Part shown: in pieces, positions 1,125 to 30,302 of the stretch
Layout of the letters: each line of letters begins with the position of its first letter
How positions within the stretch are numbered: the stretch's first letter is position 1
Origin: an uncultured Candidatus Saccharibacteria bacterium
GTDB taxonomy: Bacteria; Patescibacteriota; UBA1384; XYA2-FULL-43-10; 1-14-0-10-43-13
Length of the DNA: 64,000 nt
Assembly: GCA_964419835.1 (NCBI GenBank)
Contig: CAYQPT010000003.1
Span: 799-64,798 of the forward strand
Direction: 5' to 3'
Program-made: the position numbers and the translations under genes
Notes under the pieces: model-generated
What the model was told of the DNA's origin: nothing
Database searches by the model: none
Seen by the model: only the letters and a program-made list of their open reading frames with translations

Positions 1125-1133
1125 TTAAGCCAT

Positions 1134-2558: not shown

Positions 2559-3630
2559 GTGGCTGACTAATGTAGCCGGCTCAGAGAGGGTTTTACTGGC
2601 GTTAAAGGAGATCTATAAAGATGCTCCCATTTTCACATCTGTCTTTGAGCCAAAAAAATCCCCTCCTTTTCAAGCATTTAATGTTACCACCTCATTTTTA
2701 CAGAAAATCCCATTTATGAAGTCAAAGCGGGAGCTTTTAATCCCTTTTACTCCATTTGCTTTTGAACAATTTAACCTATCAAAATACAATCTAGTTATTT
2801 CAAATACTTCTATGGCTGCAAAAGGTGTGATTACTAAGCCCGAATGTATTCATATTTCATATTGTAACACTCCCCCAAGGTATTTATGGGAGATGAATGT
2901 GGATCCTCGTGCAAGCAAGGGGAGATTTTCATTTTTACGCAAAAATATAATTCATAAAATGCGGCTGTGGGATCGTGTGGCTGCAGACAGGGTTGATTAT
3001 TTTCTTGCAAACTCTAAATACATAGCTAATCGTATTAAAAAGTATTACAAGAGAGATTCTATTGTTGTGTATCCTCCGGTTAATGTGGAAAATTTTTATG
3101 TGGCCGAAAAGAAAGACATCAAAGATTATTATTTGTTTGTAAGCCGTCTAATTAATTATAAAAAATGTGATCTTGTTATTGATGCGTTTAATGACTTAAA
3201 GCTGCCGTTAAAAATTATTGGAACTGGTCCGGATGAACAGTTATTAAAGAAGAGAGCGAAGAGCAATATTGAGTTTCTCGGATTTATCTCAGACGAAAGT
3301 ATGAAAAAGTATTATGCTGAGGCAAAAGCTTTTATATTTCCCGCGGAAGAAGATTTCGGGATTGTACCGGTTGAAGCAATGTCAGCCGGTAGACCGGTGA
3401 TTGCGTTTCAAAATGGCGGAGCCGCAGAAACTGTTGTAGAGGGAGTAACCGGAACATTTTTTGCCGAACAAACTCCGCAATGTTTAATAGATGCTGTTAA
3501 AAATTTTGATCCGGAAAAATTTAATTCCGAAACAATACGTCGTCATGCTGAAAAGTTCTCTCTCGAACGATTCAAGAAAGAATTTAAAGAAACGGTGGAA
3601 AATATTATTAAAAACCACAGGGCAAGCTAG
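2515..3630 (+). CDS. glycosyltransferase family 4 (GT4)
   Basis: IALVHEWL N-terminus and the EEDFGIVPVEAMSAGRPVIAFQNGGAAETV motif (EX7E region). It overlaps the upstream gene by 44 nt. Confidence 0.85.
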   Translation: MKHLAENQNIALVHEWLTNVAGSERVLLALKEIYKDAPIFTSVFEPKKSPPFQAFNVTTSFLQKIPFMKSKRELLIPFTPFAFEQFNLSKYNLVISNTSMAAKGVITKPECIHISYCNTPPRYLWEMNVDPRASKGRFSFLRKNIIHKMRLWDRVAADRVDYFLANSKYIANRIKKYYKRDSIVVYPPVNVENFYVAEKKDIKDYYLFVSRLINYKKCDLVIDAFNDLKLPLKIIGTGPDEQLLKKRAKSNIEFLGFISDESMKKYYAEAKAFIFPAEEDFGIVPVEAMSAGRPVIAFQNGGAAETVVEGVTGTFFAEQTPQCLIDAVKNFDPEKFNSETIRRHAEKFSLERFKKEFKETVENIIKNHRAS

Positions 3631-3733
3631 TAAGCAAGTAAGTGCATAAGCAGGTCAGTAATATTAATAGTAAATATTCCGATTAACTAAAAACTAACTA
3701 CTATTAACCAATAACTAAATTTCCGGAGGGGAA

Positions 3734-5845: not shown

Positions 5846-5995
5846 AATTAATAAAACTGCTTGAAGAGGGCAGATAAGAGTGATACAATACATTTAGATT
5901 ATCGATCACCAAAATTAACATATTTTGCTAATTTTGTTTGTTACCGCTAAATTTTAGTTATGAGCATATCTAACAAGTCCCAAGGAGAGAAAATA

Positions 5996-8083
5996 ATGGA
6001 AGAAATCAAAAAAGCGGCTGCAACTGACACTTATGACGCATCGAAAATTACCGTTCTAGAAGGACTTGCGCCCGTAAGAAAAAGGCCGGGTATGTATATT
6101 GGTGGAACGGGGCTAGATGGACTTCACCACTTGGTTTGGGAAATCGTTGACAACGCTGTTGACGAAGCTATGGCTGGGTTTTGCGACAAAATCATCATAA
6201 TTCTTCATAGAGATGGTTCGGTTTCGGTTGATGATAATGGACGAGGTATTCCGGTCGACAAACATAAAGTAACGGGTAAATCAGCGCTTGAAACAATTCT
6301 AACAACACTACATGCCGGCGGTAAATTTGGGGACGACGGCTATAAAGTTTCAGGCGGTTTGCATGGTGTGGGCGCATCTGTTGTTAACGCTCTTTCTGTC
6401 TGGGTCAAAGCCGAAGTTAAGAAGAATGGCAAGCTATATTTTCAAGAGTACGACAAGGGTGTTGCAAAAGCCGAAATCAAAGCAATTGGCGATGCAACCA
6501 CAACTGGAACTAAAATCACTTTCTTGCCTGATCCTGAAATATTTAAAAATACAACATTCTCGTATAAAACTATTTTGAATCATTGCCGCCAGCAGGCGTA
6601 TTTAACCAAGGCAGTAATGCTTACTGTGATTGATGAACGCGAAGAGGGTGAAATTAAAAAAGAGATTGTTGAGGAAGACAGAGAAAATATCCCTGATGAG
6701 GATAATGAAGAGAGCGAAGATGATAAAAATATGCGTACCGGACGAGGTTCTTTGGGGGAAGAAGAGGCAGATCCGTCAACTGACGGAGAAAAAATCGGGC
6801 ACCAGCAATATTCATTCTACTTTGAAGGTGGTATTGCATCCTATGTCCGGCACATCAATAAAAACCGCGATGTAATAAACGATCCTCCAATGTATGTGGA
6901 AAAAGAAATGAATGATGTGGTGGTCGAGCTATCCTTAGCTTACACCGATGATTTTAAAGAGCATCTTCACTCTTTTGCCAACAATATTAATACCGCTGAA
7001 GGCGGAACTCACTTAACCGGTTTTAGAACTGCATTGACACGGGCGATTAATGATTACGCAAAGAAACACAATCTTTTGATCAAGGGAGTTGGCTTGACCG
7101 GTGAGGATGTCCGCGAGGGATTGACCTGTGTCTTATCAGTAAAATTATCCGACCCGCAATTTGAAGGTCAGACCAAGGCGAAACTTGGCAATACTGAAGT
7201 CAGGACAATTGTTGATTCCGTTAGTGCTACTGCTTTAACCAATTATTTTGATGAAAATCCGGTTGAAGCCAAGAAGATTATTGAAAAATGTTCTCTTTCA
7301 GCTAGGGCAAGAATGGCGGCGCGGGCAGCCAGAGATACTATTATTAGAAAAGGCGCGCTTGAGGGGATGACTCTTCCAGGCAAGCTTGCAGACTGTTCGT
7401 CCAAAGATTCAAAACGGACCGAGATATATATTGTTGAGGGAGATTCCGCCGGTGGTTCTGCTAAGCAGGGACGCGACCGTAATTTTCAAGCTATTCTACC
7501 TCTCCGCGGTAAAATTTTAAATGTTGAAAGGGCACGGCTTGACCGGATGCTCACTTCCGATGAAATTAAAGCTCTAATTGTCGCCATGGGAGTTGGTGTC
7601 GGCGAAGAAATCAACTATGCAAAGCTTCGGTATGACAGAATCATAATAATGACTGATGCTGATGTTGATGGCGCCCATATTAGAACGCTTCTTCTCACAT
7701 TCTTCTTTAGAAATTTTCCAGATCTAATCGAAAAAGGTCATATTTATATTGCTCAGCCACCGCTTTTCTCCGTGCAAAAGGGCAAGGAAAAACATTGGGT
7801 ATACACTGACGCTGAAAGGGATGCGGTTGTTAAAAAAATTAAAGGCAATAAAGACGAGGTCTCCGGAATTATGATCCAGCGATTTAAAGGTTTGGGCGAA
7901 ATGAATCCTACTCAATTATGGGATACTACCATGAATCCGGAAAACCGCATTTTGCTTCAAGTTGCTACTGGAGACGCTGAGAAAGCGGACGAAACTTTTT
8001 CAATGTTGATGGGCGACCAAGTTGCACCGCGCAAAAAATTTATCCAAACACGGGCAAAGAGTGTGAAGAATCTGGACACATAA
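5996..8083 (+). CDS. gyrB: DNA gyrase subunit B
   Basis: GHKL ATPase, TOPRIM and tail motifs (LEGLAPVRKRPGMYIG, EGDSAGGSAKQGRDR, PLRGKILNVE, IMTDADVDGAHI). AGGAGA lies 8 nt before the ATG at 5996. An in-frame ATG at 5960 has no SD. An acidic insertion of about 45 aa lies in the ATPase-to-transducer region (see the gyrase finding). Confidence 0.93.
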   Translation: MEEIKKAAATDTYDASKITVLEGLAPVRKRPGMYIGGTGLDGLHHLVWEIVDNAVDEAMAGFCDKIIIILHRDGSVSVDDNGRGIPVDKHKVTGKSALETILTTLHAGGKFGDDGYKVSGGLHGVGASVVNALSVWVKAEVKKNGKLYFQEYDKGVAKAEIKAIGDATTTGTKITFLPDPEIFKNTTFSYKTILNHCRQQAYLTKAVMLTVIDEREEGEIKKEIVEEDRENIPDEDNEESEDDKNMRTGRGSLGEEEADPSTDGEKIGHQQYSFYFEGGIASYVRHINKNRDVINDPPMYVEKEMNDVVVELSLAYTDDFKEHLHSFANNINTAEGGTHLTGFRTALTRAINDYAKKHNLLIKGVGLTGEDVREGLTCVLSVKLSDPQFEGQTKAKLGNTEVRTIVDSVSATALTNYFDENPVEAKKIIEKCSLSARARMAARAARDTIIRKGALEGMTLPGKLADCSSKDSKRTEIYIVEGDSAGGSAKQGRDRNFQAILPLRGKILNVERARLDRMLTSDEIKALIVAMGVGVGEEINYAKLRYDRIIIMTDADVDGAHIRTLLLTFFFRNFPDLIEKGHIYIAQPPLFSVQKGKEKHWVYTDAERDAVVKKIKGNKDEVSGIMIQRFKGLGEMNPTQLWDTTMNPENRILLQVATGDAEKADETFSMLMGDQVAPRKKFIQTRAKSVKNLDT

Positions 8084-8191
8084 CATTTATCAATTACCAG
8101 TTATCAATTTCCATTCATTTATCATTGAAAATCTACGTGACTAAATGATCAATGGAAAATGAGCAATGAGCAATAATTCACGAGGATAGAT

Positions 8192-11100
8192 ATGGACGAC
8201 AATAACATTGACGAAAACGAAATAATTCCTACAGAAGATTCTGAACAATCAAAAGAGGTTGGATCAGAAGAAGTTTCTGAAAATCCGGCGGATGATGCTG
8301 AGATCATCGAAGAAGTATCAGTTTCTCCTGTGGTTGCAGATAGAGATTCAGGGTCTCCTACCAGCGATCTTATGAGAAACAATACTGTAGAAGAAGATAT
8401 GTTTGTTCCGGAGGTCGGTAATCTGGTTCGCCGTGATCTTACAGTTGAGATGGAAACTTCATACCTAGACTATGCCATGAGCGTCATTGTTTCGCGTGCT
8501 CTTCCGGATGTTAGAGATGGTCTAAAGCCGGTTCATAGACGCGTTCTTTACGCTATGCATGCGACAGGGCTTCATCATTCCTCAAAATACCGTAAATCCG
8601 CCAAAGTTGTAGGTGAGGTTATTGGTAACTACCATCCACATGGTGATGTGGCAGCTTATGATACTTTAGTCCGCTTGGCTCAGGATTTCTCAATGCGTTA
8701 TCCCTTGGTTGACGGTCAGGGAAACTTTGGTTCAATGGATGGCGACTCTGCCGCTGCTATGCGATACACAGAATGTCGAATGTCCTCAATTGCTGAAGAA
8801 ATGGTTGCTGATATAGATAAAGATACCGTTGACTGGCAGGATAACTATGATGGCTCAACGCAAGAGCCGATCGTAATGCCGGCCAGAGTGCCGCAGCTTC
8901 TCCTAAACGGTACTATGGGTATTGCCGTTGGTATGGCAACAAACATTCCGCCTCACAATTTAGGAGAACTTTGCAATGGAATCGGTGCCTTGATTGATAA
9001 TCCTGAAGTTACTGTCGAGGACTTAATGGAGCACATTAAGGGTCCGGATTTTCCTACTGGAGGCGTTATTTACAATAATGAAGATATCAAGATGGCCTAT
9101 GCTACTGGTAAGGGCCGTATTATGATGCGGGCAAAGGCAGATATTGAAGAGGGAAAGCGTGGATTCAAGATTGTAATTACAGAGATTCCATATCAGGTTA
9201 ACAAAGCGACTATGATTGAAAAGATTGCCGATCTTGTGAAGGAAAAGAAAATTGACGGCATTTCAGATCTACGGGATGAATCCGACCGTCACGGTGTTCG
9301 GGTTGTAATCGAGCTTAAAGCTAATTCGTATCCGAAGAAAGTTCTAAACCGCCTTTTCGAATTGACCCAGATGCAGACGGCTTTCCATGTTAACATGCTC
9401 GCCTTAACTCCAGATCTTGAACCGGTCGTGATGACATTAAAAGATGTTCTCTCATATTATATTGAACATAGAAAGAATGTTATTGAGCGGCGAAGTCGAT
9501 ATGAACTAAAGAAGGCAAAAGACCGCGCTCACATACTGGAAGGGCTCCGGATCGCGCTTGATAATATAGATGAAGTAATCAACACTATCCGAGCTTCTGC
9601 AAACAGGGATGAAGCTAAAAAGAATTTAATTGCCAAATTTAAACTCTCAGAGCTCCAAGCTGATGCGATTTTAGATATGCGTCTTTCTGCTTTGGCAGCG
9701 TTGGAGCGAAAAAAGATTGAAGATGAATATGACGAAATTATGAAACGGATTGCCTACTTGGAAGATCTTCTGGCGCATCCGGAAAAAATTCTTTCTCTCA
9801 TCAAGACAGACCTAAAAGAAGTTGCTGATAAATATGGTGATGACAGAAGAACAGCCATTGTCCCTGGTGCTCTTGGTAGCTTCAATGCCGAAGATTTAAT
9901 TCCTGACCAGAAAGTGATTGTCGCATTTTCACGAAGCAATTACATTAAGCGTCAAGAGATTGAAACTTACCGAAAGCAGACAAGAGGCGGCTTCGGTGTT
10001 GTTGGCATGACAACAAAAGAAGAAGACATCGTCGATAATTTGGCTTGTGCCAGTACGCATGATGACATATATTTCTTCTCCAACAAAGGCCGCGTCTTTA
10101 AGAGTAAGGTTTACGAATTACCGGCATCTTCTAGGCAATCTAAAGGCACACCTATCGTAAACATTGTTCAAATCTCCCAAGATGAGAAAGTGACTGCAAT
10201 TTTGACCGTGCCGAAGACAAATAAGAGTAAATTCTTCATTATGGGCACTAAGAATGGACAGATTAAAAAGACTGAAATAGAAAAGTATGAAAATATAAGA
10301 AAAACCGGAATAATCGCTGTTGGACTAAAAGGCGATGACGAGCTAAAATGGGTTAAGATGTCAGGCGGTAAAGACATAATTGTTGAGGTTTCAGTAAAAG
10401 GACAGGCAATTTGCTATCCAGAAACAGATGTCCGTCCAATGGGCAGAAGCGCTTCAGGGGTTACTGGAATGCGTCTGCGTAAGTCTGATCAGGTAATGTC
10501 AATGGACATCGTTCCAGGTGAAATGGCCGGATTTGATAAGCCGACGAATTTCCGCGGGCCCGATATGCTGATTGTTCTTGAGAACGGTTTTGGCAAGCGA
10601 ACAATGCTGAGGAATTTTCACCTCCAAAAACGTGGTGGTATGGGTATTCGCGCTGCAAACTGTACACCGAAGACCGGTAATGTAATTGGCATGCATATTA
10701 CGTACACAGACTTGGGTGATGTTATTCTGGCATCTCAAAAGGGACAATTTATTAGAATGGAACTGGCCAAGATTAAGCGCTTAGGAAGAGATACTCAGGG
10801 AGTAACTCTAATGAAACTACGCGCTGACGATAAAGTTTCATCAGTTGCTCTTATCTTGCCTGACGAAGAAGAAGTGGTGCAGAATGAAATTCCTCTAGAT
10901 TTAAACTCCCCTAAAGCCCCAGAAGAGAAGACGGTAAGGGACAACGGATCTGCAAAATTAGAAAAAACAGAGAAGAAAATAGCAATTAAAGAAAAAAATG
11001 TTTCAAATAAGCCCGATAAAAAAGTAATACAAAGTATGACAAAAGATATTCCAACCAAAGACAAAAAGGAAAATGAGACTGAATCTAAATTCAAAGTCAA

Positions 11101-11236
11101 TTATTACGAGCCAAAGAAAGATGAAAAAATGGTTGAAGCATCAGAAGATGACTCTAAAATAGATTTTCATACTAAGAAATTACCCGAAAATCCCCCAATT
11201 ATTAAAGATGACACGAACTACTGGGGCGCGAAATAA
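8192..11236 (+). CDS. gyrA: DNA gyrase subunit A with an acidic N-terminal extension and a lysine-rich C-terminal tail
   Basis: [33 protein letters not shown], the active-site region and C-terminal beta-pinwheel repeats. About 75 extra N-terminal residues and a ~140 aa K/E-rich tail. GAGGA lies 7 nt before the ATG at 8192. Confidence 0.92.
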
Positions 11237-11438
11237 ACATAGAATCAAGTATTTTGAATTACGAATTATGGCAGAGTTACTATTATATTGAATTGATAGC
11301 GCCGAATTAGTGTTATCTATAATTCGGGTTGCTTTTAGAACTATTTTTCAGTATAATAAAAGGCACAGTTATTGATCGCCGAAGTTTAAGCAGCCAGAAA
11401 CACCATTATTCATTATTCCATATTCATAATTCCATCCT

Positions 11439-13337
11439 ATGGCCCGATTCCAAAAAAGAAAATTGAGCAAGAAAGAACAAAAGGCAGTGGACAAAAATGG
11501 CCCACAGCTTACTTTTGAGGAGAGAAAAGCTCAAAAGGAAGCTTCGGCCGAGCCAAAAGCAAAAAAACAAGTCCACATTCCAAATGTAATCTCAGTAAAA
11601 GATTTTGCAGAAATTTCTGGTTTACCTGTAACTCAGGTTATCACTGTTCTGATGAAGAATGGTATTTTGGCAACAATTAATGAAACAATTGACTTTGAAA
11701 CAGCTGCCATCGTTGGAGATGACTTGGGTCTTGAAATCATTCCGTCTGAAGAAGAGGAAGCAGAAGGCAAGCAGATAGAAGAAAAAGTGGAGAATAAAAA
11801 CTTAGTTCATCGTCCGCCAGTTGTTACTATTATGGGCCATGTTGACCACGGAAAGACAACTCTTTTAGACCAGATCCGTTCCGCTCATGTCGCTGAAGGT
11901 GAGTCAGGCGGTATAACTCAACACATTTCCGCGTATCAAGTTACGCTAAAAGACACTAAGAATAAAAACTTAAAGAATAGAACTATTACTTTTATTGACA
12001 CTCCCGGCCATGCTGCTTTTTCGGCCATGCGGGAGCACGGTTCGGCGATCACTGACATTGTTGTCCTAATTATCGCCGTAACTGACGGTGTTATGCCGCA
12101 AACAATTGAGGTAATCAAACAAGCTCAGGGAAATAATGTACCAATCATTGTGGCTATTAATAAAGTTGATGTGCCTGATGCCGATATAATGAAAACCAAA
12201 CAACAGCTCTCCGAATATGATCTTGTGCCAGAGGAGTGGGGCGGAAAAACTGTTATGTCGGAAATATCCGCTAAGACAGGCAAGGGCGTTGATGATCTTT
12301 TGGAGCTTATTCTTTTGCAAGCCGATTTAATGGAGCTAAAAGCTGATCCGAAAGAGGATGCGCTTGGAATTGTCATTGAATCACACATGCAAAAAGGCGC
12401 TGGTGCCATGGCGTTGGCTTTAATTGAAAATGGAACATTACGAAAAGGCGACGCCGTCGCGATTGGCGCTTCGTTCGGCCGAATTAGAATTCTTGAAGAC
12501 ACGCTGGGCAAACCGGTTGAAAGCGCGGGTCCAAGTTTCCCCGTTCTTCTCGCTGGATTGAAGTCACTACCAAACTTTGGCGATCGGCTTTTGGCATTTA
12601 AAAATGAAAAAGCTGCCCGTGAGACAGCTCAGAAATATCAGAGAGCAGATGTTAAGATTAAAATTGCAACTGCCAGAAAATATTCTAAAGAAGGTGCTGC
12701 GGCAGAAAACATTGAAAAAGCTTTTGATTACAACATCATACTAAAGACTGACGTTCATGGCTCGCTTGAAGCAGTTAAAAAACTTCTTTCAGAGATTAAA
12801 TCGCAGGAAGCTCAAATTCAAATCATCTCTGAAGGAGTTGGCGCTATCTCGGAGTCGGATGTTACTTTGGCGAAGGCAACCGGTGCCCATATTATTGGCT
12901 TTAGAGTTAAAGGACTGGACGCTGCCAGAAAGATTGCCGAAAAAGAAAAAGTCACAATCCAATTATTTGAAATCATTTATGAACTGATCGATACAATTAA
13001 AAGAGATATCGGAAAGATGCTTCCGCCCGAAGTTATTGAGGAAGAGTTAGGCAAAGGTGACGTACTCGGCATTTTCCGCGATGACAGAAAAGGTTTTGTA
13101 GCAGGTGGCAAGATTGAAAAAGGCAAGCTCACGGTTGGTGACGAGATTAAAATATTTCAAAATGACAATGAAAAATATAGAGCCAAGATTGTTTCTCTTC
13201 GAAAAGAAAAAAGTGAGGTTAAAGAGTGTGAATCCGGTTCAGAATGTGGCTTTGGTATGCCGGCCGGCGCAAATGTGGCAGTAGGGGACACCTTCGTTGC
13301 TTTCAAAACAATCCACAAAGAACGCGTCATTGAATAG
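11439..13337 (+). CDS. infB: translation initiation factor IF-2 (short form)
   Basis: GTPase motifs [17 protein letters not shown] and NKVD, and IF-2 C-terminal domains. Confidence 0.92.
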
Positions 13338-13452
13338 CATTCGTGGTCTTTATAGTACTAAAAATTTGTGTGCCATTGGCAGACATTTTTATTTTCTAGG
13401 AACTGCTGTACAATATAAGTATTAAATAATGTTCTAAAAAATGGAGGGTGAT

Positions 13453-14781
13453 ATGAAAAAAATTGGAGCAATGCTTTTTATAGGCATTTTTTCGTTGATG
13501 ACTTTTTGGGGGACAGCGAGTGCCGGCCCATCGGTTGACCAAAGCAACACAAAAATTGAAGATGCCTCAGCTTCCCTGTTGATGGATGCGCCTTATTATA
13601 GGGCTCAAACTTTCCGTCCCGACAGGCAGCATATAGATCAGATAGATATCTATTTAAAAGATAGAGCAGAGGGATCATGGGCACAGATTTATCTTTATAA
13701 TGAAACTAATCATCTAGAGATTGCTAATGTAGGTCATAGGATGGCCGCGGGAACTGGTTGGGAGACCTATCCTCTAAATGTTGACGTAACAGTAGGAGCG
13801 AGATACAGAATTAAACTAGTTGTTAATGCTTCAGGTGTTAAATGGCCTTTTACTACCGGGAATGTTTATATTCGGGGATCATTGTACTACGAAGAAAACA
13901 CTTATTATAGTGGAGCTGATTTTATATTTAGGACTTGGGGCACTGATCCCGTTGAGATGGTTGAGGAGCAAATCATTCCAGAGGACGGAACAGATGAGCC
14001 CGGAACGCCCGGAACGCCAGCGTCCATCCCTGGAACTGCTGAAGGGATAACCGTAGTGGCGGAAACTCCGACAGCGACAGTTGCAACATCAATCGCCAAA
14101 CCAACCGAATTAACCGCCGCTTACACCGATAGCGCAAAACTGACATGGAAAGCATCGACTACTACCGATATCACCGGTTACATCGTCTTCCGATCTGAAA
14201 CCAAGGGAAAGGGGTATACAAAGATAGCAGATGTGGCAAAAAATATATTAGAATATACTGACACAACAGCCGCTGCGTCAAAAACCTACTACTATGTTGT
14301 CAGGGCGGTAAAAGGGACAGTGCAGTCTGCCAGTTCCAATGAAGCAACAGTAGTTGTACCAGCGACCGCTCCGCCAATTGCTCCTCAAAATTTAAAAGTA
14401 AATTTGGTCCAAAGTTCATCCATAAATGTAACTTGGGATAAAAATCCAGAAGAAAATATTTCAGGATATACTTGCACCATTTCTCTCGAAGGCAAAGAGG
14501 TGGAAGTAAAAAATATCGGAGCGGATGACAATAATTGTCTTTTCTCTAATCTGATACCTGACGCAGATTACAAAATTGCCGTTATCGCCAAGAATTCATT
14601 GGGAGAATCCTCATCTCCTTCAGAGATAACACAAAAGACCGCTTTAGAAACTGTTGTCCAGAAAGAGCCAATATTGCCTTTGCTTCTCTGGGTGCTCCTA
14701 TCCTTTGCCGCCGCTCTTACAATAGTTCTAATGATAATGATCTGCCGCAGACATAAAAAAGCTAAACAGCAGTCAGTTTAA
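13453..14781 (+). CDS. secreted, C-terminally membrane-anchored protein with two fibronectin type III-like repeats
   Basis: Signal peptide MKKIGAMLFIGIFSLMTFWGTASA. Two FN3-like repeats (LTWKAS...YYYVVRAV and VTWDKNP...YKIAVIAKN). C-terminal TM helix followed by a basic tail. GGAGGGTG SD before the ATG at 13453. Confidence 0.7.
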   Translation: MKKIGAMLFIGIFSLMTFWGTASAGPSVDQSNTKIEDASASLLMDAPYYRAQTFRPDRQHIDQIDIYLKDRAEGSWAQIYLYNETNHLEIANVGHRMAAGTGWETYPLNVDVTVGARYRIKLVVNASGVKWPFTTGNVYIRGSLYYEENTYYSGADFIFRTWGTDPVEMVEEQIIPEDGTDEPGTPGTPASIPGTAEGITVVAETPTATVATSIAKPTELTAAYTDSAKLTWKASTTTDITGYIVFRSETKGKGYTKIADVAKNILEYTDTTAAASKTYYYVVRAVKGTVQSASSNEATVVVPATAPPIAPQNLKVNLVQSSSINVTWDKNPEENISGYTCTISLEGKEVEVKNIGADDNNCLFSNLIPDADYKIAVIAKNSLGESSSPSEITQKTALETVVQKEPILPLLLWVLLSFAAALTIVLMIMICRRHKKAKQQSV

Positions 14782-14795
14782 CTTAAGTTTACAAT

Positions 14796-15887
14796 ATGTC
14801 AGAAAAAATAAATAATATCCTACACAGGTTTTTTGCTTTTGTCGTTCGAAGAAAATTACTCTGCGTCCTACTGGTGGTATTGTGTTGTTCTTTGTTTGCT
14901 GCCAAAGTATCGATTTCGGCGCAAAATATTGGCGCCGGTGAAGCCGTCTCAAAAATATCAAAAGCAATCACCATGGGATCGCTGGCGCCGATTACTGGAC
15001 CGGGGGAGAAGAATGAAAGCAGTGTAGATACTGATAATACAACCGAGAATACCTCATCTTCTACCCCATTGTCAGTAGGGAAGTCAAACAGCACAACCGG
15101 AATCACAAGTTCATCCAACACTTCCTCGACAACACCTCCTAATTCATCTTCTGGATCTTCTGGCTCCAACCCCAGTTCCCCTGCTTTGCCGGTTGACGAA
15201 ACGCCATCAGCAGTTGTGGCTTTTTATGCTGATAACCAGTCGGACACAGACGCCGAGGATGAAAATCACCTGAGAGTTGTTGATTATATCTTAGCAACTG
15301 GTGCTAATCCGGTATTTCACGCTGGTGATTTAATGGAAGACGGGACACAGGATAGTTTAAACCGCTTTAATGCGGTGACAGGAACAATGCGTTCGAGCCG
15401 GTCTTTCTATGCCGCATTGGGTAATAACGACCGCAAATACGGCGACTCTTCCACCCCATCGTCACTGTTTTTGAACAACTTTGTTTTCCCGAACAACGAA
15501 CAATGGTATTCAGTAAATGTTGGCAATCTGCACATGGTCGTTTTGGACAGCGCTTTCTCTAGAAGCAGCACTACTCAGCGTAATTGGCTTATCGCTGATC
15601 TGCAGAGCGCGTCTTCCCAATCAAAAGTAACGGGCGTAATGTATCATCACCCTGATTTTTCAGCAGATATTTCACAGTATCTTACAGATAATGGCGTTGA
15701 TTTCGTTATTTCGGGACACACCCATTCCTATACACATGCGATTTCCGGTGGAGTTCACTATTTTGTGACAAGCGGACAGCCGGGGATAGGGTATCTTTTA
15801 GCAAGAATCTATCAAGATAATGTTTCAATCTCGTACTACAATAGTAGTAATAGCGTAGTTGAAACATTCAATTTTAACGAGAGATAA
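14796..15887 (+). CDS. secreted calcineurin-like metallophosphoesterase with a Ser/Thr-rich linker
   Basis: N-terminal signal anchor, a long S/T/N-rich low-complexity linker, and metallophosphatase motifs (GDLMEDG, GNND, HHP, GHTHSY). Confidence 0.7.
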   Translation: MSEKINNILHRFFAFVVRRKLLCVLLVVLCCSLFAAKVSISAQNIGAGEAVSKISKAITMGSLAPITGPGEKNESSVDTDNTTENTSSSTPLSVGKSNSTTGITSSSNTSSTTPPNSSSGSSGSNPSSPALPVDETPSAVVAFYADNQSDTDAEDENHLRVVDYILATGANPVFHAGDLMEDGTQDSLNRFNAVTGTMRSSRSFYAALGNNDRKYGDSSTPSSLFLNNFVFPNNEQWYSVNVGNLHMVVLDSAFSRSSTTQRNWLIADLQSASSQSKVTGVMYHHPDFSADISQYLTDNGVDFVISGHTHSYTHAISGGVHYFVTSGQPGIGYLLARIYQDNVSISYYNSSNSVVETFNFNER

Positions 15888-15891
15888 TTGT

Positions 15892-16395
15892 TTAAATATT
15901 TCTACTGTCATACGCCCAGTGAAGTACTGCCTGGCGTTGTTTTGGTCTGCAGGACAGATCCTTTGATCGACAGTTTCTTTTTATTTGGGCGATATGGCGA
16001 TTGATTGCTTTCCATCGCTTAATTTGCCGCGCGTCTTCTTTCGGAATTCTTCTCCCCATGTAGTATCGGCAGTACCACTGGAACCATCCGCGCGGGTCCT
16101 CTTCATATATCCAGCCGTTTTTTCTCCAAACAAATAGAGGTTGGCTGGCGTTTACTTTAAAATAGTTTAAATTTGAGTCGTGTTTCTCGGGGCATAATTT
16201 GGCATTATTAAACCAATCTTTGGGAAACTCATCTTTACAATCGGTCATATATTTTCCACCAAACACGCCCAGTTCGAGCATTTCTTTGGGAGTCAAATCG
16301 GGCTTAAATTCCGGATCAAAGTTTCTTCCCATTGGCTCGGAAAGTATATAGGAATAACCCTTCTGCATTTTGTCATTTATAACGACTTTTTTCAT
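15892..16395 (-). CDS. conserved hypothetical cytoplasmic protein (Trp/Cys-rich, GWFQWYCRYYMGRR motif)
   Basis: Intact 167 aa ORF with protein-like composition; I cannot assign a family from memory. Confidence 0.55.
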   Translation of the reverse strand: MKKVVINDKMQKGYSYILSEPMGRNFDPEFKPDLTPKEMLELGVFGGKYMTDCKDEFPKDWFNNAKLCPEKHDSNLNYFKVNASQPLFVWRKNGWIYEEDPRGWFQWYCRYYMGRRIPKEDARQIKRWKAINRHIAQIKRNCRSKDLSCRPKQRQAVLHWAYDSRNI

Positions 16396-16455
16396 TGCAT
16401 ATTACGATTATAGACCAACCAAAAACCTGTGTCATATAGCATTTTAATGCATAAT

Positions 16456-16464
16456 TGTGGATAA
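16456..16464 (+). promoter_or_regulatory. perfect DnaA box (TGTGGATAA, the reverse complement of TTATCCACA)
   Basis: Exact 9-mer match to the DnaA box consensus, in an AT-rich 325 bp intergenic region. Confidence 0.5.
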
Positions 16465-16543
16465 GTACGAACATAAACCGAACATAAGATTATCACAATC
16501 TGATCTTAAAATTAATCATGAGCATAAACATTTTGCGTGACAT

Positions 16544-16552
16544 TGTGGATAA
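16544..16552 (+). promoter_or_regulatory. second perfect DnaA box (TGTGGATAA) in the same orientation, 88 bp from the first
   Basis: Exact 9-mer match; both boxes sit within the extended repeat ATTGTGGATAAG. Confidence 0.5.
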
Positions 16553-16719
16553 GCCAGATACATCGCGAAAAAATAAAAGCAATAGAATATAATTGTTGTA
16601 AAAATAGTTTAAAAATTAACTGTAAGGATAAAAGGAGCGTTGCTTGCTAAATAAGTTTGGCATTTCTATTATTAGATATGGTAAAATGTAATTGAAAACA
16701 ATTCTTTAGGAGGACTAAA

Positions 16720-17034
16720 GTGAAAAAAGGATTTACATTACTGGAATTGCTTATAGTCATTGCTATTATTGGTATTTTGGCCACGATCATTACTTTAAAT
16801 GTGGCTAACGCTAAAGACAGCGCCAAAAAAGCCAAAGCAATTTCCGACCTTGATACAATTGCGAAGATGGAAGAATATTACAAAAGCCAGAATACCACTC
16901 AAAAATATACAATAAGTCGCAGTGAATATTCTTGTGATATTTATCTCCCGGTTGAAGAGTTGTCAACAATTTCCCTCTACAGGAAAACAAATGGTTGGTT
17001 TGGGGTATATCGAAAGAATGCCGACTTATTTTGA
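16720..17034 (+). CDS. type IV pilin / pseudopilin with prepilin N-terminal methylation motif
   Basis: MKKGFTLLELLIVIAIIGILA is a class III signal peptide (G|FTLLE). GTG start with AGGAGG 6 nt upstream. Confidence 0.85.
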   Translation: MKKGFTLLELLIVIAIIGILATIITLNVANAKDSAKKAKAISDLDTIAKMEEYYKSQNTTQKYTISRSEYSCDIYLPVEELSTISLYRKTNGWFGVYRKNADLF

Positions 17035-17434
17035 TAAGGATGGAAACGAGCAAGAGTACGCATATTCAAGTAAAGACGGAAGCTCCTTTATTATCGAAGC
17101 AGCCGATGTAACAAATCAGACGGAATTGCTTCGGGTAACTCCCTCGGGTTTAGTTAAAGAGGGCGCTAATCAGTCAATTACTCAGACAGATGCACTATGC
17201 AGAGCGTTTGATACAAATGGAGATGGTATTTTAAGGTCTGATATAAATGAGTGGAATGCGACACAAGCGACTATGCATGCTTGTCGCGTTTATCCTTTGA
17301 CGGATGAATGCAAAAAGTTTGACATGAATAAAGATGACACAATTGACTCTATAGATGCCATCATGCTCTTTAATTTTATACAAGCTGCTTCTTCCTCCTA
17401 TATTGACACAAACTGCAGTCAACTGGGATACTAA
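17018..17434 (+). CDS. dockerin-like / EF-hand-like calcium-binding repeat protein in the +1 frame overlapping the pilin 3' end; possibly the pilin C-terminal domain separated by a frameshift
   Basis: DTNGDGILRSDINEW and DMNKDDTIDSIDAIMLFNFI resemble dockerin type I Ca-binding repeats. No signal peptide of its own. The ORF opens at 16916, with in-frame starts at GTG 16922, ATG 16991 and ATG 17018. Confidence 0.4.
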   Translation: MPTYFDKDGNEQEYAYSSKDGSSFIIEAADVTNQTELLRVTPSGLVKEGANQSITQTDALCRAFDTNGDGILRSDINEWNATQATMHACRVYPLTDECKKFDMNKDDTIDSIDAIMLFNFIQAASSSYIDTNCSQLGY

Positions 17435-17716
17435 CAGTTTTTCGGGGCAGCAAAAGAGAGAGCCCGTATGCTGCGACTCTCCCGATTAGATCGATCAAAA
17501 GATTGCTCCTCTAAAAAATCGTAATCTGTATCTATATAGTACTCCTGCCACAGACCCTGTCAATGACGGGAGGGATGAGGTATTTTTTAGTATATTTGCA
17601 ATCTCATCTATTAAAATAGAACCTTTTTTTGCGAGGCCGTCTTTATCTTTTTCCTAATTCATGTAATTATACAGTTAGCCCAGCGGGGCAATTCCAACTT
17701 GAAAGGTGGCAATCCA

Positions 17717-19147
17717 ATGTCGAAGAAGTCAAAAGGATTCCCAGTTCTGTTTCAGGCTGGGATGGGATCGAGAGTTTCAAGCTGGGTGATGGCCCGCATA
17801 GTTTCTATGCTGGGTGCACTCGGCGTTGTCTCTTCTGTCGGACTGCGCACAGTCATGATCGAGGAGGTTAGGCGAGGCAACCAAAAGGTGATCGAGATGG
17901 CCAAGAGGTTTCCATTTCCTGGCCATATCGAAGAGTTGCTGGCATTTGCCAAGGGATGCAAGTGGCACAAAAAGCCAGTCCCAATGGACCAGTTCGGTCC
18001 AAAAGGCGAGCTTGCCAAACGGCTGTCTACGATAGCCGCGTTCATTGAAGTGTCCTTGGCAAAAGAGGGGCACAACGGTCTGATCGGGATCAATGTGATG
18101 TGGAAGCTGCCGCTGACGGTGCTGCCGGTGATATACGGCGCAATGCTTGCAGGCGTCAATATCATCATTGCCGGGGCAGGGGTCCCGATGGAGCTACCAG
18201 CTATTGTCGAGGCAATCCGATCCGGTCAAGACCTGGCTTTCAAACTGGGGACGGACGCGGAATTCACTTTGCGGATTGTTCCTGGAACTTCTGAGCTCAT
18301 AAGCTCGCGTGACAGGCCGAAGCTGGCACCGATTTTGTCCAACTTTGTGTTTTGCAGAAAACTCAAGGATGGATGGAAAGAGAAATACGGCGTCGAGCCG
18401 GATTTCTTCATTCTTGAGGACTACAAGGCAGGCGGCCACAATGCTCCACCTCGTAACAAGGAAGTGCATTCCGTTGAGAAAGACGGGATCGACAGCTACT
18501 TCGACGAAGTCGTAGAGCTGGGAATTCCGGTGGTCGTCGCAGGCGCATTTGAGCACGGCGGAACACGGGCAGATCTGCTTTACTGGCAGAAGAGGGGCGC
18601 TCATGGGATCCAGGTCGGATCCCGGTTTGCTCTTTCTTCTGATTCAGGAATGCTCGAGATCTACCGTCATCAGATCCTTGAGCTCAACAAAGCAGGCAAG
18701 CTGGAGATAATAACCCGCATGTCGGACTCACCAACGGGTTATCCGATCAAGATGGCGGTCCTTCAAGGTACTCTAGCCGATCCCGAGATCTACCGTGCAC
18801 GCAGGCGTGCTTGCAAACAAGGGTACCTTCGTGAGGTGCACACCTATACTGACGAGTCTGGCCAGGAGGTCCAAGTACTGTCTTGTAAGGCCATGCCTCT
18901 TGATCAGTATATGGCCCTAAATCCAGACAAGACCAGAGAGCAGTGCGAGGAGGACTCTGACGGTAAGGTCTGTCTGTGCGACGGACTCTTGGGTGCGATT
19001 GGGTTCAAGGCCGTACCAGCGTACATAACGTTGGGCGAAAGTGGGAGGATACCAACTGAGGAAGAGTCTGCCCGGGAGATTGCCCTAGAGATTCTGACTC
19101 CGAGGGACGACGAGGATACAGGGATTGACCTACGACTTGCCGCCTAA
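17717..19147 (+). CDS. FMN-dependent nitronate monooxygenase / FabK-like oxidoreductase (COG2070 family) with a Cys-rich C-terminal extension; GC-rich, probably horizontally acquired
   Basis: FQAGMG...LGALGVVSS, GAGVP and LEDYKAGGHNAP resemble NMO/2-nitropropane dioxygenase motifs. About 55% GC against about 38% in the flanks. An SD-like AAAGGTGG precedes the ATG at 17717. Confidence 0.55.
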   Translation: MSKKSKGFPVLFQAGMGSRVSSWVMARIVSMLGALGVVSSVGLRTVMIEEVRRGNQKVIEMAKRFPFPGHIEELLAFAKGCKWHKKPVPMDQFGPKGELAKRLSTIAAFIEVSLAKEGHNGLIGINVMWKLPLTVLPVIYGAMLAGVNIIIAGAGVPMELPAIVEAIRSGQDLAFKLGTDAEFTLRIVPGTSELISSRDRPKLAPILSNFVFCRKLKDGWKEKYGVEPDFFILEDYKAGGHNAPPRNKEVHSVEKDGIDSYFDEVVELGIPVVVAGAFEHGGTRADLLYWQKRGAHGIQVGSRFALSSDSGMLEIYRHQILELNKAGKLEIITRMSDSPTGYPIKMAVLQGTLADPEIYRARRRACKQGYLREVHTYTDESGQEVQVLSCKAMPLDQYMALNPDKTREQCEEDSDGKVCLCDGLLGAIGFKAVPAYITLGESGRIPTEEESAREIALEILTPRDDEDTGIDLRLAA

Positions 19148-19220: not shown

Positions 19221-19556
19221 TTACTTTTTAATTGCCAGCCATTTCCAGAGTGCGGCAAGAGCAAAAATCAGTGCAAAAAATGACAAGATTGCGTTGAAAA
19301 CCATTATCACTGAGAATGTTTTTGCCCACCAGGGCCAAGTCAGCTTGGTATTTTGTTCAGCATTGGCGGTGGCATTCGTCTGTTGCTGCTGTTGGACTGT
19401 CTTTTTCTGTTGCTGGCTTTGAAGATAGCTGTTTAAGGCGTCTGTCTTGGGATCTGTTTCGGCCGCAAAAACATTTGATGATATCGGCCAAAATATTGGA
19501 AGTGCACCAATCAGTAAAAGTGCCGACGCAAATAAACTTACTAATAATTTTCTCAT
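19221..19556 (-). CDS. small secreted/membrane protein (signal peptide, Q-rich middle, C-terminal TM)
   Basis: MRKLLVSLFASALLLIGALPIF signal, a QQQKKTVQQQQQ stretch and a C-terminal hydrophobic helix. AGGAGA lies 5 nt before the ATG on the minus strand. Confidence 0.55.
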   Translation of the reverse strand: MRKLLVSLFASALLLIGALPIFWPISSNVFAAETDPKTDALNSYLQSQQQKKTVQQQQQTNATANAEQNTKLTWPWWAKTFSVIMVFNAILSFFALIFALAALWKWLAIKK

Positions 19557-21138: not shown

Positions 21139-22362
21139 ATGTGGAAAATAATTACCAAAAATTTGTGGATAAAAATATTCTGCCTTTTAGCGGCGGCCGG
21201 GCTTTGGCTTTACATTGCCTCCGGACAAAATTCTGTTGGCAAGTTCCCCGGCAGTATAACAGTTCGCGCCATAAATGTTCCAGCAGGATTGGTTGCCACT
21301 TACGACATAAAAACAGTTAATATAAAGGTAATGGGGGATTCTTCCGTATGGCGCAAATTATCCTCAGACACTTTTTCGGCATATGTTGATTTGTCGGCGC
21401 ACTCGGAAGGAACATATGAACTCCCGGTTAATGTTGTTTCTTCGGTGCAGGGTGTACAAATTGTGGAAAAGGATCCAGAGAAAATATTTGTGAGCTTGGA
21501 GCCGGTTATTTCTAAAAAAGTTAATGTTAATAAAAAAATTGAAGGAAGTGCAGGCGAGGGATTGGTGGCTGGCAATATTGATCTTGACCCAACAGAGGTT
21601 GATGCAAAGGGTCCAAAGAGCTTAATAGATAAACTCACCGAAGCTACTGCAACCATAAATCTAAATGGCGAGACAGATAACTTTACAAAAACGGTTTCTG
21701 TTGTCGCATATGATGAAAATGGTGATCCTGAAAATAACATTGAATTTGTTCCGGCTGAGGTAAAAGCGTCTGTTTCCATCGTTAAAGCATCAAACAATAA
21801 AACAGTCGGGATTAAAGTTTTAACTAGTGGTTCGCCCAAATCCGGCTATTTTGTATCAGACATTTCGACGACTCCGGCCACCGTCGACATTACCGGTCCG
21901 GCTGACATTTTAGTTAAAACCAGTTACGCCGAGACCTTTAGCGTCGACATAGGCGGTGCTTCCTTGGATATGGAAAAAAGCGTGTCATTAAATTTAAAAG
22001 ATGGGATAGCTCTGCAAGCCGGTACGACGCCTAAAATATTGGTGAAAATTAAATTTAGCCGTGCCGATATATCGAAGGAAATGACCGCTAACATTACGGC
22101 AAAAAATCTCGATTCGTCATATTACTTAAGTTCTGTTAACCCGATTCAGATAAATGTAACATGCTCCGGCCCCGCTGATTTAATTGCTAATCTGAAAAAT
22201 TCTGATGTCAATCTGGCACTTGATTTTGCAGACAAAAGAATTTTATCCGGTGCCGTTTACAACTTTGAATTAAGCGCAAAAAACTTCTCTGTTCCTGACG
22301 GAGTATCCGTCTCGAGTATTGTCCCCTCATCAGTCAGTGTTGCAGTAGACAAAAAACACTAA
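21139..22362 (+). CDS. cdaR: CdaR (YbbR-like domain protein), regulator of CdaA
   Basis: N-terminal TM anchor and repeated YbbR-like beta domains. Lies immediately downstream of cdaA in the conserved arrangement. Confidence 0.8.
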   Translation: MWKIITKNLWIKIFCLLAAAGLWLYIASGQNSVGKFPGSITVRAINVPAGLVATYDIKTVNIKVMGDSSVWRKLSSDTFSAYVDLSAHSEGTYELPVNVVSSVQGVQIVEKDPEKIFVSLEPVISKKVNVNKKIEGSAGEGLVAGNIDLDPTEVDAKGPKSLIDKLTEATATINLNGETDNFTKTVSVVAYDENGDPENNIEFVPAEVKASVSIVKASNNKTVGIKVLTSGSPKSGYFVSDISTTPATVDITGPADILVKTSYAETFSVDIGGASLDMEKSVSLNLKDGIALQAGTTPKILVKIKFSRADISKEMTANITAKNLDSSYYLSSVNPIQINVTCSGPADLIANLKNSDVNLALDFADKRILSGAVYNFELSAKNFSVPDGVSVSSIVPSSVSVAVDKKH

Positions 22363-26387: not shown

Positions 26388-26554
26388 GTTCTTGTTTCCT
26401 CCTGCCTTGCGATAAGGCGAGTCGTTTGAGGCACGATTACCTCGTTATCCCGAAAGTGCGATACTCTCGAAACTGGTTCTAGATTACCATATTTTTTGAT
26501 TTAGTCAATTTAGGATGCAAGATTCCCACCTGCGCGGGAATGACAAAAAGACAC

Positions 26555-26592
26555 GGGGATGACATAAAGAGTGGGGGATGACATAAAGAGTG
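26555..26592 (+). repeat. tandem direct repeat 2 x 19 bp (GGGGATGACATAAAGAGTG), with a degenerate third copy at 26536-26554
   Basis: CACGGGGATGACATAAAGAGTGGGGGATGACATAAAGAGTGG, preceded by CGGGAATGACAAAAAGACA. Confidence 0.8.
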
Positions 26593-26668
26593 GTCAAGTT
26601 TGGGAATTAAATTAACGATATTATCCGCTCTGGAACTTATTATTATCTTTTGAAAAACCAGATCCATA

Positions 26669-26939: not shown

Positions 26940-29900
26940 ATGGCAAAGAAAACTAGCGAAATGGAGAGAATTATCCCACGACCAGTTGAAGCATGGGAAT
27001 CACTCCCGAATCTCGTTGAGATTCAAACTAAATCCTACGATTGGTTCTTTAAAGAAGGATTGAACGAGCTTTTCGATGAAATTTCACCGATCGAAGACTT
27101 TACCGGCGAACTTTACTCACTTTCTTTCGGCAAATACTTCCTTGAGAAGCCAAAAGTTGATGAGAAAACCGCTAGAGAAAAGAATTTGACCTACAAAGCC
27201 CCTCTCCGCGTTCAGGTTTCCCTGCTTAATAAAAAGACCAAAGAAATCAAAGACGGTGAAGTTTTCTTGGGAGATTTTCCGCTGATGACCGATGTCGGCA
27301 CTTTCATTATCAATGGTGTTGAAAGAGTTGTCGTTTCTCAGATTGTCCGTTCCTACGGTGTATTATTTACTGCTGACAAAGTTAACGGCGAAAACTACTT
27401 CGGTGCCAAAGTTATTCCTTCAAGAGGTGCTTGGCTTGAAATCGAGACAAACTCCAAAGGTGTTATTTCGGTAAAGGTTGACCGAAAACGAAGAATTCCT
27501 ATTACCACATTCTTGCGCTCTCTTGGCATAGGCGACGAAGCAGAAATGAAAGCTCTCTTTTCAGATGTTGATGACAATGACGAGCTCAATTACATTGATG
27601 CAACTTTAGCTAAAGATCCCGCAAGCAACTACGAAGAAGGATTGGTTGAAACATATAAACGAATCCGTCCTGGTGACCTGGCTACTGCAGAATCAGCAAA
27701 ACAATTTATTGAAGCAATGTTCTTCAACCCAAAGAGATATGATTTGGGCAGAGTCGGCCGCTATAAGCTTAATCAGCGGCTTGATTTAAATGTGGAGAAC
27801 ACTCCTCTTAACAGAATAATGCGAAAAGAAGACTTAATTGAGGTTATTCGCGAGATTATCCGATTAAACAACACTCCCGGAGCAGAGCCGGACGATACGG
27901 ATAGCTTGAAGAACCGAAGAATTAGAGCCGTTGGAGAATCAATCCAAGGCCGTGTTCGAGTCGGTCTTCTTCGAGTAGAGAGAATTGTCAAAGACAGAAT
28001 GAGCATTTGTGATCCTGTTGAAGTTACTCCTTCCGCTCTTGTTAACTCCCGTCCGGTTGTTGCCGCACTTCAGGAATTCTACGCCAGCTCTCAGCTTTCA
28101 CAGTTTATGAACCAAACGAACCCGCTTTCAGAGCTTGAGCATAAAAGAACTCTTTCCGCTACCGGTCCCGGTGGTCTCTCGCGAGAGCGCGCCGGCTTCG
28201 AAGTAAGAGATGTTCACTCTACTCACTACGGTCGAATTTGTCCGATTGAATCTCCTGAAGGTCCAAACATTGGTTTGGTTTCATATCTTGCCTGTTATTC
28301 ACGAATAAACGAATACGGTTTTCTGGAAACTCCTTATAGAAAAGTAAAAATTGAAAATGGCAAAGCCAAAGTTACCCACGAGATCGTCTACATTGACGCC
28401 GGCACAGAGGAAAAAGCGATTATTGCTCCCGCTTCAGTCGAGATTGATAAAGACGGCTACATTGTCGGCAAAAGGGTAATTGTTAGAAAGTATTCCGAAC
28501 CGGAAATTGAAGATGCACTCAAAGTGCAGTACATGGACATCTCGCCTCGGCAGATCGTCTCGATTGCAACTTCACTCATTCCTTTTGTAGAGCACGATGA
28601 CGGTGCAAGGGCGATGATGGGATCGAATATGCAACGACAGGCCGTTCCGCTCATTTGCCCCGATTCTCCAATCGTCGGCACCGGAATGGAAAAGAACGCC
28701 GCCAAAGACTCCGGCCAGATTGCAGTAGCTGAAAAGGACGGTGAAGTAATTCATGTTTCGTCCGATTTGATAAAAGTCAGAGATAAAGACGGCCAAACAG
28801 AAGAATATTTACTCGAAAAATTTGTTCGTTCAAACCAAGGTACTTCCATCAATCAGCGTCCGACCGTTAATCTTGGTGACAAGGTTAAAAAAGGACAGGT
28901 TATTGCCGATTCCTCCGCTACAGACAATGGTGAATTGGCACTCGGCCAAAACCTTATGGTCGCCTTCATGTCATGGGGCGGAAACAACTTTGAAGACGCT
29001 ATAATCCTTTCAAACCGAATCGTAAAAGATCATGTATTATCCTCAGTTCACATCGAACAATATTCAATTGAAGTGCGCGACACCAAATTGGGTCCTGAGG
29101 TTTTAACCCGCGACATCCCAAATGTTTCAGAAGAAGCTCTTTCAAACTTGGATGAAATGGGTGTTGTCCGAATTGGCGCTGAAGTTAAATCGGGCGACAT
29201 TTTGATCGGAAAAATTTCTCCAAAGGGTGAAACCGAACTTACTTCAGAGGAAAAGCTTCTTCGCGCAATCTTCGGCGAAAAAGCTAAAGATGTACGAGAC
29301 TCATCCCTTAGATTGCCTCATGGCGAATACGGCAAGGTTGTTGAAGTTAAAATGTTCTCCAAGGAAGCCGGAGATGAGCTTCCAGCCGGTGTATATCAAA
29401 TGGTAGAAGTTTCAGTAGCACAGCTTAGAAAAATTTCAATCGGTGATAAATTAGCCGGACGACACGGTAATAAAGGTGTTATTTCAGTAATCCTGCCACA
29501 GGAAGACATGCCGTTTATGCCTGATGGAACTCCAGTTGATGTTGTTTTGAACCCGCTTGGTGTTATTTCCCGTATGAATGTCGGCCAGATTTTGGAAACT
29601 CACCTTGGACTAGCAGCTAAGCATGGCGGATATAAGATTGCCACGCCGGCTTTCGAAGGCATTACTATTGATGAAATAAAGTCACGGCTTAAGACAGAAG
29701 GATATGGGGAAGACGGAAAAATCCAACTTTATGATGGCGAAAGCGGTGAACCATTTGCAAGAAAATCCACGGTCGGGATTATGTACATATTGAAGCTTCA
29801 TCACTTGGTTGATGACAAGATGCATACTCGTTCAGTCGGTCCTTACTCAATGATTACTCAGCAGCCACTTGGTGGTAAAGCCCAGTTCGGTGGGCAGAGA

Positions 29901-30302
29901 TTCGGAGAGATGGAAGTTTGGGCGCTTGAAGCTTACGGCGCAGCTCATACTCTTCAGGAAATGCTTACAATCAAATCTGACGATGTTGTTGGACGAAGCA
30001 AAACATACGAATCAATTATTAAGGGTGAGAAGATACAAAAGCCGCTTATCCCAGAAGCGTTCAATGTTATGGTGAAGGAACTTCAGAGCTTGGGCTTAAA
30101 GGTGGATCTTTTGGCACCGAAAATTGATCCAAACGCAATCGAAGACGAAATAGTAAGCCCTGTAGTATTAAAAACAGAAAAAGAGGATTCTCTTCCAATT
30201 GAAAATGACGAAGATATTGACGAGAAGTTGACCGAGATTGCAGCTGAGCAAACCGGAGAAGATGAAGATATTGTTTCAGAAGAGATCGACGAAGATAAAT
30301 AA
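26940..30302 (+). CDS. rpoB: DNA-directed RNA polymerase subunit beta (compact form)
   Basis: Conserved RpoB blocks throughout, for example [30 protein letters not shown] and [20 protein letters not shown]. Length is 1120 aa. Confidence 0.97.

Follow-up and report, generated by a model that had tools for sequence, protein, structure and literature searches.

A paired DnaA-box and GTTC-repeat module upstream of a conserved 167-aa gene in a Candidatus Saccharibacteria genome: a candidate control site rather than a replication origin

Our analysis leans toward a reading in which two perfect DnaA boxes upstream of a conserved 167-aa gene are the DnaA-box halves of a paired composite, a non-origin module that regulates this gene. 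The other half of the composite is a direct repeat of GTTC sites, and the pair of composites is found upstream of the same gene in related lineages. Positions given below are those of the window, that is, the whole 64,000-nt stretch of DNA that was analysed.

DnaA boxes and direct repeats in the intergenic region

The intergenic region between the divergently oriented 167-aa ORF and a prepilin-type gene spans 324 bp (16396-16719) and has an AT content of 71.3%, vs. 58.6% for the window. It holds two exact copies of the DnaA box TTATCCACA in identical orientation, both of which read TGTGGATAA on the plus strand. Each copy lies inside the identical 12-mer ATTGTGGATAAG (16454-16465 and 16542-16553), with a spacing of 88 bp. 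Three perfect boxes were found in the whole window against 0.63 expected from shuffles, and at the base composition of the region itself the expectation is 0.004 boxes, with a probability of ~7e-6 of finding two or more. The two perfect boxes are therefore real and non-random. The preliminary description of this DNA had reported the pair with its positions, shared orientation and extended repeat, the ~70% AT content between divergent genes and the improbability of a chance pair, and in all of these it was confirmed.

The same description had overlooked a twofold CGAACATAA repeat beside box 1 (16468-16487), which is a piece of a larger conserved motif. It supplies the GTTC-N7-GTTC portion of a 29-nt composite that reads TGTTCGGTTTATGTTCGTACTTATCCACA (minus strand, 16484-16456), consists of the direct repeat and box 1, and follows the pattern TGTTCGG-N4-TGTTCG-N3-TTATCCACA. 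When we searched the window for TGTTCG-N(3-7)-TGTTCG, the only match was the one at 16468-16484, against 0.01 expected. At box 2 the 9-mer is perfect and the neighbouring repeat is partly decayed. The paired module measures ~120 nt, in the order composite, GC-rich block, variable stretch, palindrome TTTGA-GA-TCAAA and composite; the features are collected in Table 1. We discarded the idea that the GTTC repeats are low-affinity DnaA sites: their resemblance to TTATGTTCG is restricted to the window, and the N4 spacer varies in relatives.

Table 1. Features of the intergenic region and its flanking genes
Feature	Position	Strand	Remarks
167-aa gene	15892-16395	minus	likely regulated target; homologues in L092 and L095 have the module immediately upstream
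Predicted sigma-70-type promoter of the 167-aa gene (ATGACA, 17 nt, TATAAT)	16407-16435	minus	11/12 consensus positions
Whole paired module	16440-16573	minus	homologous to L092:190-318, L095:2248-2378, L097, L099:699-829, L103:3481-3611
DnaA box 1 (proximal), TTATCCACA	16456-16464	minus	exact match; invariant in the proximal module copies of relatives
Direct repeat TGTTCGGTTTATGTTCG (GTTC-N7-GTTC, 11-bp phasing)	16468-16484	minus	3 nt upstream of box 1
Central palindrome remnant	16496-16511	minus	TTTTAAGATCAGATTG in the window vs. TTTGAGATCAAATTG in relatives (alignments)
Six NAN triplets (AAT CAT GAG CAT AAA CAT)	16514-16531	plus	12 nt from box 2, on the trio side
DnaA box 2 (distal), TTATCCACA	16544-16552	minus	exact match
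Distal direct repeat, partly decayed, TTTTCGCGATGTATCTGGC	16553-16571	minus	aligns with TGTTCGGnATGTGTTCGGG of relatives, ~13/19 positions identical
Prepilin-type gene	16720-17034	plus	N_methyl domain; first gene of the block 16720-19147

That the module is a gene for a non-coding RNA, or the trace of a mobile or repeated element, seems very improbable, even if its occurrence in differing genomic contexts would suit this. The RNAalifold consensus is weak (-7 kcal/mol) with an unfavourable covariation term (+0.92), and the two copies are direct repeats, which cannot pair with each other. Searches of the 64-kb window gave no Rfam family at gathering score and no tRNA. The lack of both an RNA-structure signal and an Rfam match favours an element that works at the DNA level. 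No transposase or integrase lies nearby, the window holds one full copy, and the composite had no match in viral contigs. The ends of some assembled contigs count on the other side: Logan contigs of three samples stop inside the proximal composite, where their two sides overlap by 27 nt (16458-16484). The loci concerned are L001 and L082-L086, of which L085 comes from another sample that reads through. These ends could reflect strain-level variation or extra copies of the motif in the genome.

Two other features of the window were recorded along the way. The segment 37752-40233, located between a minus-strand ORF for a 373-aa membrane protein and a 690-aa elongation-factor-like ORF, is a stretch of ~2.5 kb with no long ORF, a GC content of ~0.50 and no Rfam or tRNA match. 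At ~26553-26595, within the 550-bp region upstream of the 1120-aa ORF (26940-30302), lies a tandem duplication of GGGGATGACATAAAGAGTG.

Conservation of the module and its association with the 167-aa gene

We retrieved L092/L093 and L095, the closest relatives, through protein identity alone, making no use of the motif. In both, two composites lie directly upstream of the same gene, whose product is 92% identical to the 167-aa protein in L092/L093 and 84% identical in L095. The proximal copy in these loci reads TGTTCGG-N4-TGTTCG(G)-N2/3-TTATCCACA, and the distal copy ends in TTATACACA or TTGTACACA. In the loci found in this way, the 9-mer always lies 2-3 nt from a GTTC repeat. The distal boxes that align with box 2 in relatives are TTATCCACA, TTATACACA, TTATGCACA and TTGTACACA, which vary only at position 5 (C, A or G) and, once, at position 3. 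The classical tolerance of a DnaA box is TTATNCACA, and the variation follows it, which indicates DnaA-type degeneracy among orthologous sites. The blocks of repeat and box are invariant, vs. a mean column identity of 53% over the full module alignment. The boxes are under selection.

A metagenome scan with the composite added eight loci (L096-L103), whose sites fit the motif by construction of the search pattern. Single composites were found in L096, L098, L100 and L102, and the paired module in L097, L099 and L103. With L092 and L095, the paired module is known in five other lineages, with its composites ~88 bp apart, and its conservation extends over a clade of Patescibacteria. Upstream of the homologous gene it is absent or decayed in L087 and L094 (proteins 83 and 87% identical), and DnaA boxes were not found upstream of the homologue in 80 more distant loci, so the module is not essential to the 167-aa gene. 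A second conserved repeat of ~50 nt, containing ATAGCTTGTTAATCGGGATAGTTGAG, was seen in L099 (12-29, 615-632, 892-909 and 2024-2041) and in L097 (1272-1289); its four copies in L099 lie in the 2 kb flanking the module, and it is absent from the window.

The 167-aa protein is itself highly conserved. Homologues from many phyla (MAGs labelled as Patescibacteria, Omnitrophota, Planctomycetes, Acidobacteriota, Proteobacteria and others) are 68-92% identical to it, and more than 8000 homologues were found in total. The protein has many invariant Trp, Cys, Arg and His residues. It had no match in Pfam, NCBIfam or the sequences of the PDB. Its AlphaFold model is mediocre (pLDDT 70), and a Foldseek search of the PDB gave no fold match. 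The strong predicted promoter of the gene is the best site in the region and places the start codon 11 nt past the -10 hexamer. The predicted -35 hexamer follows the end of box 1 at a distance of 20 nt. In L092 the DnaA box overlaps the -35 hexamer predicted there, and the distance between box and promoter differs among lineages.

The gene order of L095 (infB, 167-aa gene, module, 124-aa membrane protein, liaF-like gene, cdaA) is the backbone that the window shares, with two extra blocks that are absent at these positions in L095. The first contains an fn3 protein and a metallophosphatase (13441-15887). The second (16720-19147) contains the pilin, a 170-aa dockerin-like ORF and an NMO-like gene, and as an insertion separates the module from the gene of the membrane protein (19221-19556). 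Its GC content of 0.49, vs. ~0.40 nearby, suggests acquired DNA. From this gene order the pilin block is a lineage-specific insertion; since it is missing at this position in L095 and L092, the pilin neighbour is incidental and the module belongs with the 167-aa gene. Within the block, the prepilin ORF (104 aa, 16720-17034) overlaps the 170-aa ORF (16922-17434), which is in another frame, and the two look like a single pilin gene split by a frameshift. The same sequence is present in two independent samples (L082 and L083) and is thus not a sequencing error.

The proposal of a DnaA-controlled promoter, made in the preliminary description, stands in modified form. Conservation of the boxes, with the degeneracy of DnaA sites, and their position at promoters speak for it. 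Each box is, however, one half of a GTTC composite, and by ancestry the module goes with the 167-aa gene, not with the pilin. DnaA boxes were found ahead of the homologous gene in L092/L093 and L095, and also at uvrD-type and lexA promoters, as described below.

The paired module of L099 and L103 sits where two genes end convergently and has no ORF to regulate, a placement that a gene-independent role fits better. The main rival to regulation of the 167-aa gene is a chromosomal DnaA-control locus of the datA, DARS or DnaA-box cluster kind. Such a locus would, whatever its neighbouring genes, titrate DnaA or influence its nucleotide state, with the binder of the GTTC repeat in an accessory role like that of IHF or Fis. 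It would be suited by the fixed architecture, in which two co-oriented boxes ~88 bp apart are combined with a central palindrome and a GC-rich block. E. coli datA and DARS1/2 are likewise compact intergenic DnaA-box loci with sites for accessory proteins, which can act independently of flanking genes, in agreement with the contexts of L099 and L103, and non-origin clusters are known in B. subtilis (PMC5295017). The module differs from datA and DARS1/2 in the number and arrangement of its boxes (two, vs. five in datA), in having no recognised IHF or Fis site and in not being conserved in close relatives, as its loss in L087 and L094 indicates. Single composites, moreover, sit exactly on the promoters of uvrD-type genes. 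Weighing these points, we consider a DnaA-control locus unlikely, and we retain regulation of the 167-aa gene as the preferred reading.

The region as a candidate replication origin

The preliminary description had also proposed that the region could be part of oriC, and had named the lack of a GC-skew switch near 16.5 kb as the observation that would speak against it. No such switch was found. The GC skew is positive on both sides (+0.094 for 1-16395 and +0.070 for 16720-64000), and the cumulative skew over the window runs from a minimum at base 3 to a maximum at base 63496, with only a shallow plateau at 14-17 kb. Almost all genes on either side are on the plus strand: on the left these include gyrB, gyrA and infB, and on the right cdaA, obg, two very long ORFs (1120 and 1241 aa) and several short downstream ORFs. 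With an origin at 16.5 kb, gyrBA and infB would be head-on to replication. The gyrB (5960-8083) and gyrA (8192-11236) genes lie 5-10 kb upstream and dnaA is absent from the window, both as had been described. Neither dnaA nor dnaN was detected by Pfam or tblastn in the 64 kb, taken from a source contig of 65.6 kb, and the ORFs at 1080-3630 are sugar transferases according to Pfam.

The box-to-trio orientation can be derived from the arrangement of R1 and the 13-mers in E. coli. We examined the region by the criteria that Pelliciari et al. (PMC8287927) set out for the basal unwinding system, and it shares with that system a DnaA box, a GC-containing spacer of 12 nt and at least three NAN triplets beside box 2, on the correct side. 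The run of six triplets is a length reached by only 4 of the 219 box-like sites in the window. Unlike the basal unwinding system, the region has no tandem box pair, its triplets are not of the GAT type (CAT, AAA and GAG are found instead) and the arrangement is not conserved, with runs of 1-3 triplets at the homologous boxes of relatives; it also comes without a switch in skew or gene orientation and without dnaA. We judge the run not to be a DnaA-trio array, as it is neither GAT-type nor conserved. The least stable 50-mer of the region (16568-16617) comes only fourth among those of the window and is on the incorrect side of box 2. Besides the perfect pair, the region contains only two weak boxes, with two mismatches each. 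A cluster of several boxes beside an AT-rich unwinding element with DnaA-trios was hence not found in the region.

Taken together, the two co-oriented boxes in an AT-rich region, the triplet run and the proximity of gyrB and gyrA are what an origin would offer, along with a general enrichment of DnaA-box-like 9-mers in the window (at most one mismatch, 30 vs. 16.3 expected). Against this stand the skew, the gene orientation, the missing dnaA and dnaN, and the behaviour of the module in other genomes: in L095 no strand switch accompanies it, in L099 and L103 it is found between convergent genes, and ordinary promoters carry single composites. The oriC reading is not supported, and we give a very small probability to the region being oriC, or half of a bipartite oriC. 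We also rejected a plasmid or phage origin of the iteron type (at least three iterons of 17-22 bp with an adjacent rep gene), given that each composite has only two half-sites of 6-7 nt; a rep gene was not found near the region, and viral contigs gave no match. For origin prediction the case carries a caution: finding perfect DnaA boxes in an AT-rich intergenic stretch close to gyrBA does not suffice to call an origin.

The spread of the box-like 9-mers over the window deserves separate mention. The expectation from shuffles is 16.3 +/- 4.1, 18 of the 30 sites are on the minus strand, and the excess could be caused by proximity to an origin or by codon effects. The third perfect box (21164-21172, minus strand) has a co-oriented box with one mismatch 24 nt away (21140-21148). 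Both fall within the first 12 codons of a YbbR-domain gene that follows cdaA, where they encode ..W..LWIK with no adjoining repeat, and L095 has TTATCCAAA at the same place. We set them aside as regulatory sites, since they are probably a by-product of coding for LWIK.

Composites at other promoters and the proteins that may bind them

Outside the window, single composites lie at promoters. In the two divergent genomes L100 and L102 the box is followed by the repeat, 9-10 nt, TATAAT, 6 nt and the ATG of a UvrD-family helicase, and TGTTCGG-N4-TGTTCG overlaps the -35/spacer region of the helicase promoter. The composite of L096 lies upstream of a DNA methylase gene. L102 has a second GTTC repeat with no 9-mer, directly abutting TGATATAAT, which shows that the repeat and box halves are separable.

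The half-site TGTTCG is that of the Gram-positive LexA box. LexA operators are known both as the Gram-positive CGAAC-N4-GTTCG and as the alphaproteobacterial direct repeat GTTC-N7-GTTC, so that the repeat found here is of a documented LexA motif type (PMC8565304), and a study of LexA in Patescibacteria is cited among the cases of direct-repeat recognition (PMC7739468). The repeat thus has the GTTC-N7-GTTC architecture of a direct-repeat SOS operator, a half-site equal to that of the Cheo box and, in L100 and L102, a position that overlaps the promoters of DNA-repair genes of the uvrD type. On these grounds the direct repeat is probably bound by a LexA-like protein.

To test the link between DnaA and LexA, we retrieved lexA loci of Parcubacteria (L034, L104, L106, L108 and L110). 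All five lexA promoters showed the same layout: (T/C)TATCCACA, 9 or 18 nt, TTGACn, GG, TGAAC-N4-GTTCA and a -10 hexamer. The likeness of the five indicates that promoters with a DnaA box ahead of a LexA-type operator are a recurrent and conserved type in this group, and this pairing supports the element of the window as a dual-input site for DnaA and the GTTC-repeat binder. The spacings of the box from the -35 hexamer (9 and 18 nt in lexA promoters, 20 nt in the window) differ by about one helical turn. In contrast to the element of the window, the sampled lexA promoters use the palindrome and not the direct repeat, and a constant DnaA-box partner is not known for SOS boxes. No direct repeat was found upstream of the LexA-like gene in L099, a composite-bearing lineage, and tblastn detected no lexA in the 64-kb window. 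Between the lexA operon and rpoB, the Parcubacteria L106 (~2650-2690) and L108 (~2580-2610), both on the minus strand, carry a perfect DnaA box with a second, degenerate one 2-3 nt further on (TTATCCACAagcTATTCACAg and TTATCCACAgtTTATCCAGG); these tandem boxes resemble the box pairs of origins.

A further possibility is that TTATCCACA is not read by DnaA, and that the 9-mer or the whole composite is the operator of another regulator. The constant distance of 2-3 nt between 9-mer and GTTC repeat in loci found independently of the motif would agree with this, as would the fixed distance to the -35 hexamer in lexA promoters, which is that of an ordinary activator or repressor site; the DnaA of the source organism was not seen. 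The 9-mer is, however, an exact match to the universal high-affinity DnaA box, its variation follows the tolerance of that box, and the box-less repeat of L102 speaks against a single indivisible operator. We know of no other protein family that recognises TTATCCACA, and we assign the operator of another regulator a low probability.

Under the preferred reading, in which the module regulates the 167-aa gene, DnaA would act as a transcription factor on the TTATCCACA boxes, and a second protein, most likely a LexA-type repressor, would bind the GTTC repeats with their 11-bp phasing; a winged-helix response regulator may take that place instead. Replication status and DNA damage would then act together on expression. 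With about eight helical turns between them, the composites could allow cooperative binding or DNA looping. We infer the binding proteins and the direction of regulation from what the sequences display directly, namely the features themselves, their conservation, their positions at promoters and the pairing with LexA-type boxes elsewhere.

Promoters regulated by DnaA, which make up the DnaA regulon, are a known kind of system. The module resembles the DnaA regulon and the DnaA-box clusters (DBCs) of B. subtilis (PMC5295017) in having intergenic consensus boxes that lie outside oriC, in or close to promoters, with a link to genes of DNA metabolism. It differs from them in the fusion of the box, at 2-3 nt, to a GTTC-N7-GTTC direct repeat, and in its fixed two-composite module of ~120 bp with only two boxes, to which the binding of DnaA is predicted. 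Non-origin DnaA-box sites are thus already known, while the constant coupling of such a box to a LexA-type repeat, and the pairing of composites in one module, seem to be a new variation on them.

More broadly, the composite might be a dual-input cis-element of Patescibacteria, a DnaA box with a LexA-type operator, that wires a regulon for replication and damage, and the paired form of which could act in the manner of datA or DARS; we offer this as a tentative idea, of doubtful though not negligible likelihood. If true, the fusion of a DnaA box to a LexA-type operator, in direct-repeat or palindrome form, would be a previously undescribed element, and the lexA operon, UvrD-type helicases and the 167-aa protein would belong to one regulon responding to replication status and DNA damage. 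Gene regulation and the control of replication are almost unstudied in Patescibacteria (CPR), as these bacteria are mostly uncultured, and the composite provides a concrete and testable regulon signature for them. It points to DnaA as a transcription factor in Patescibacteria and may tie a highly conserved 167-aa protein to the biology of DNA damage or replication stress.
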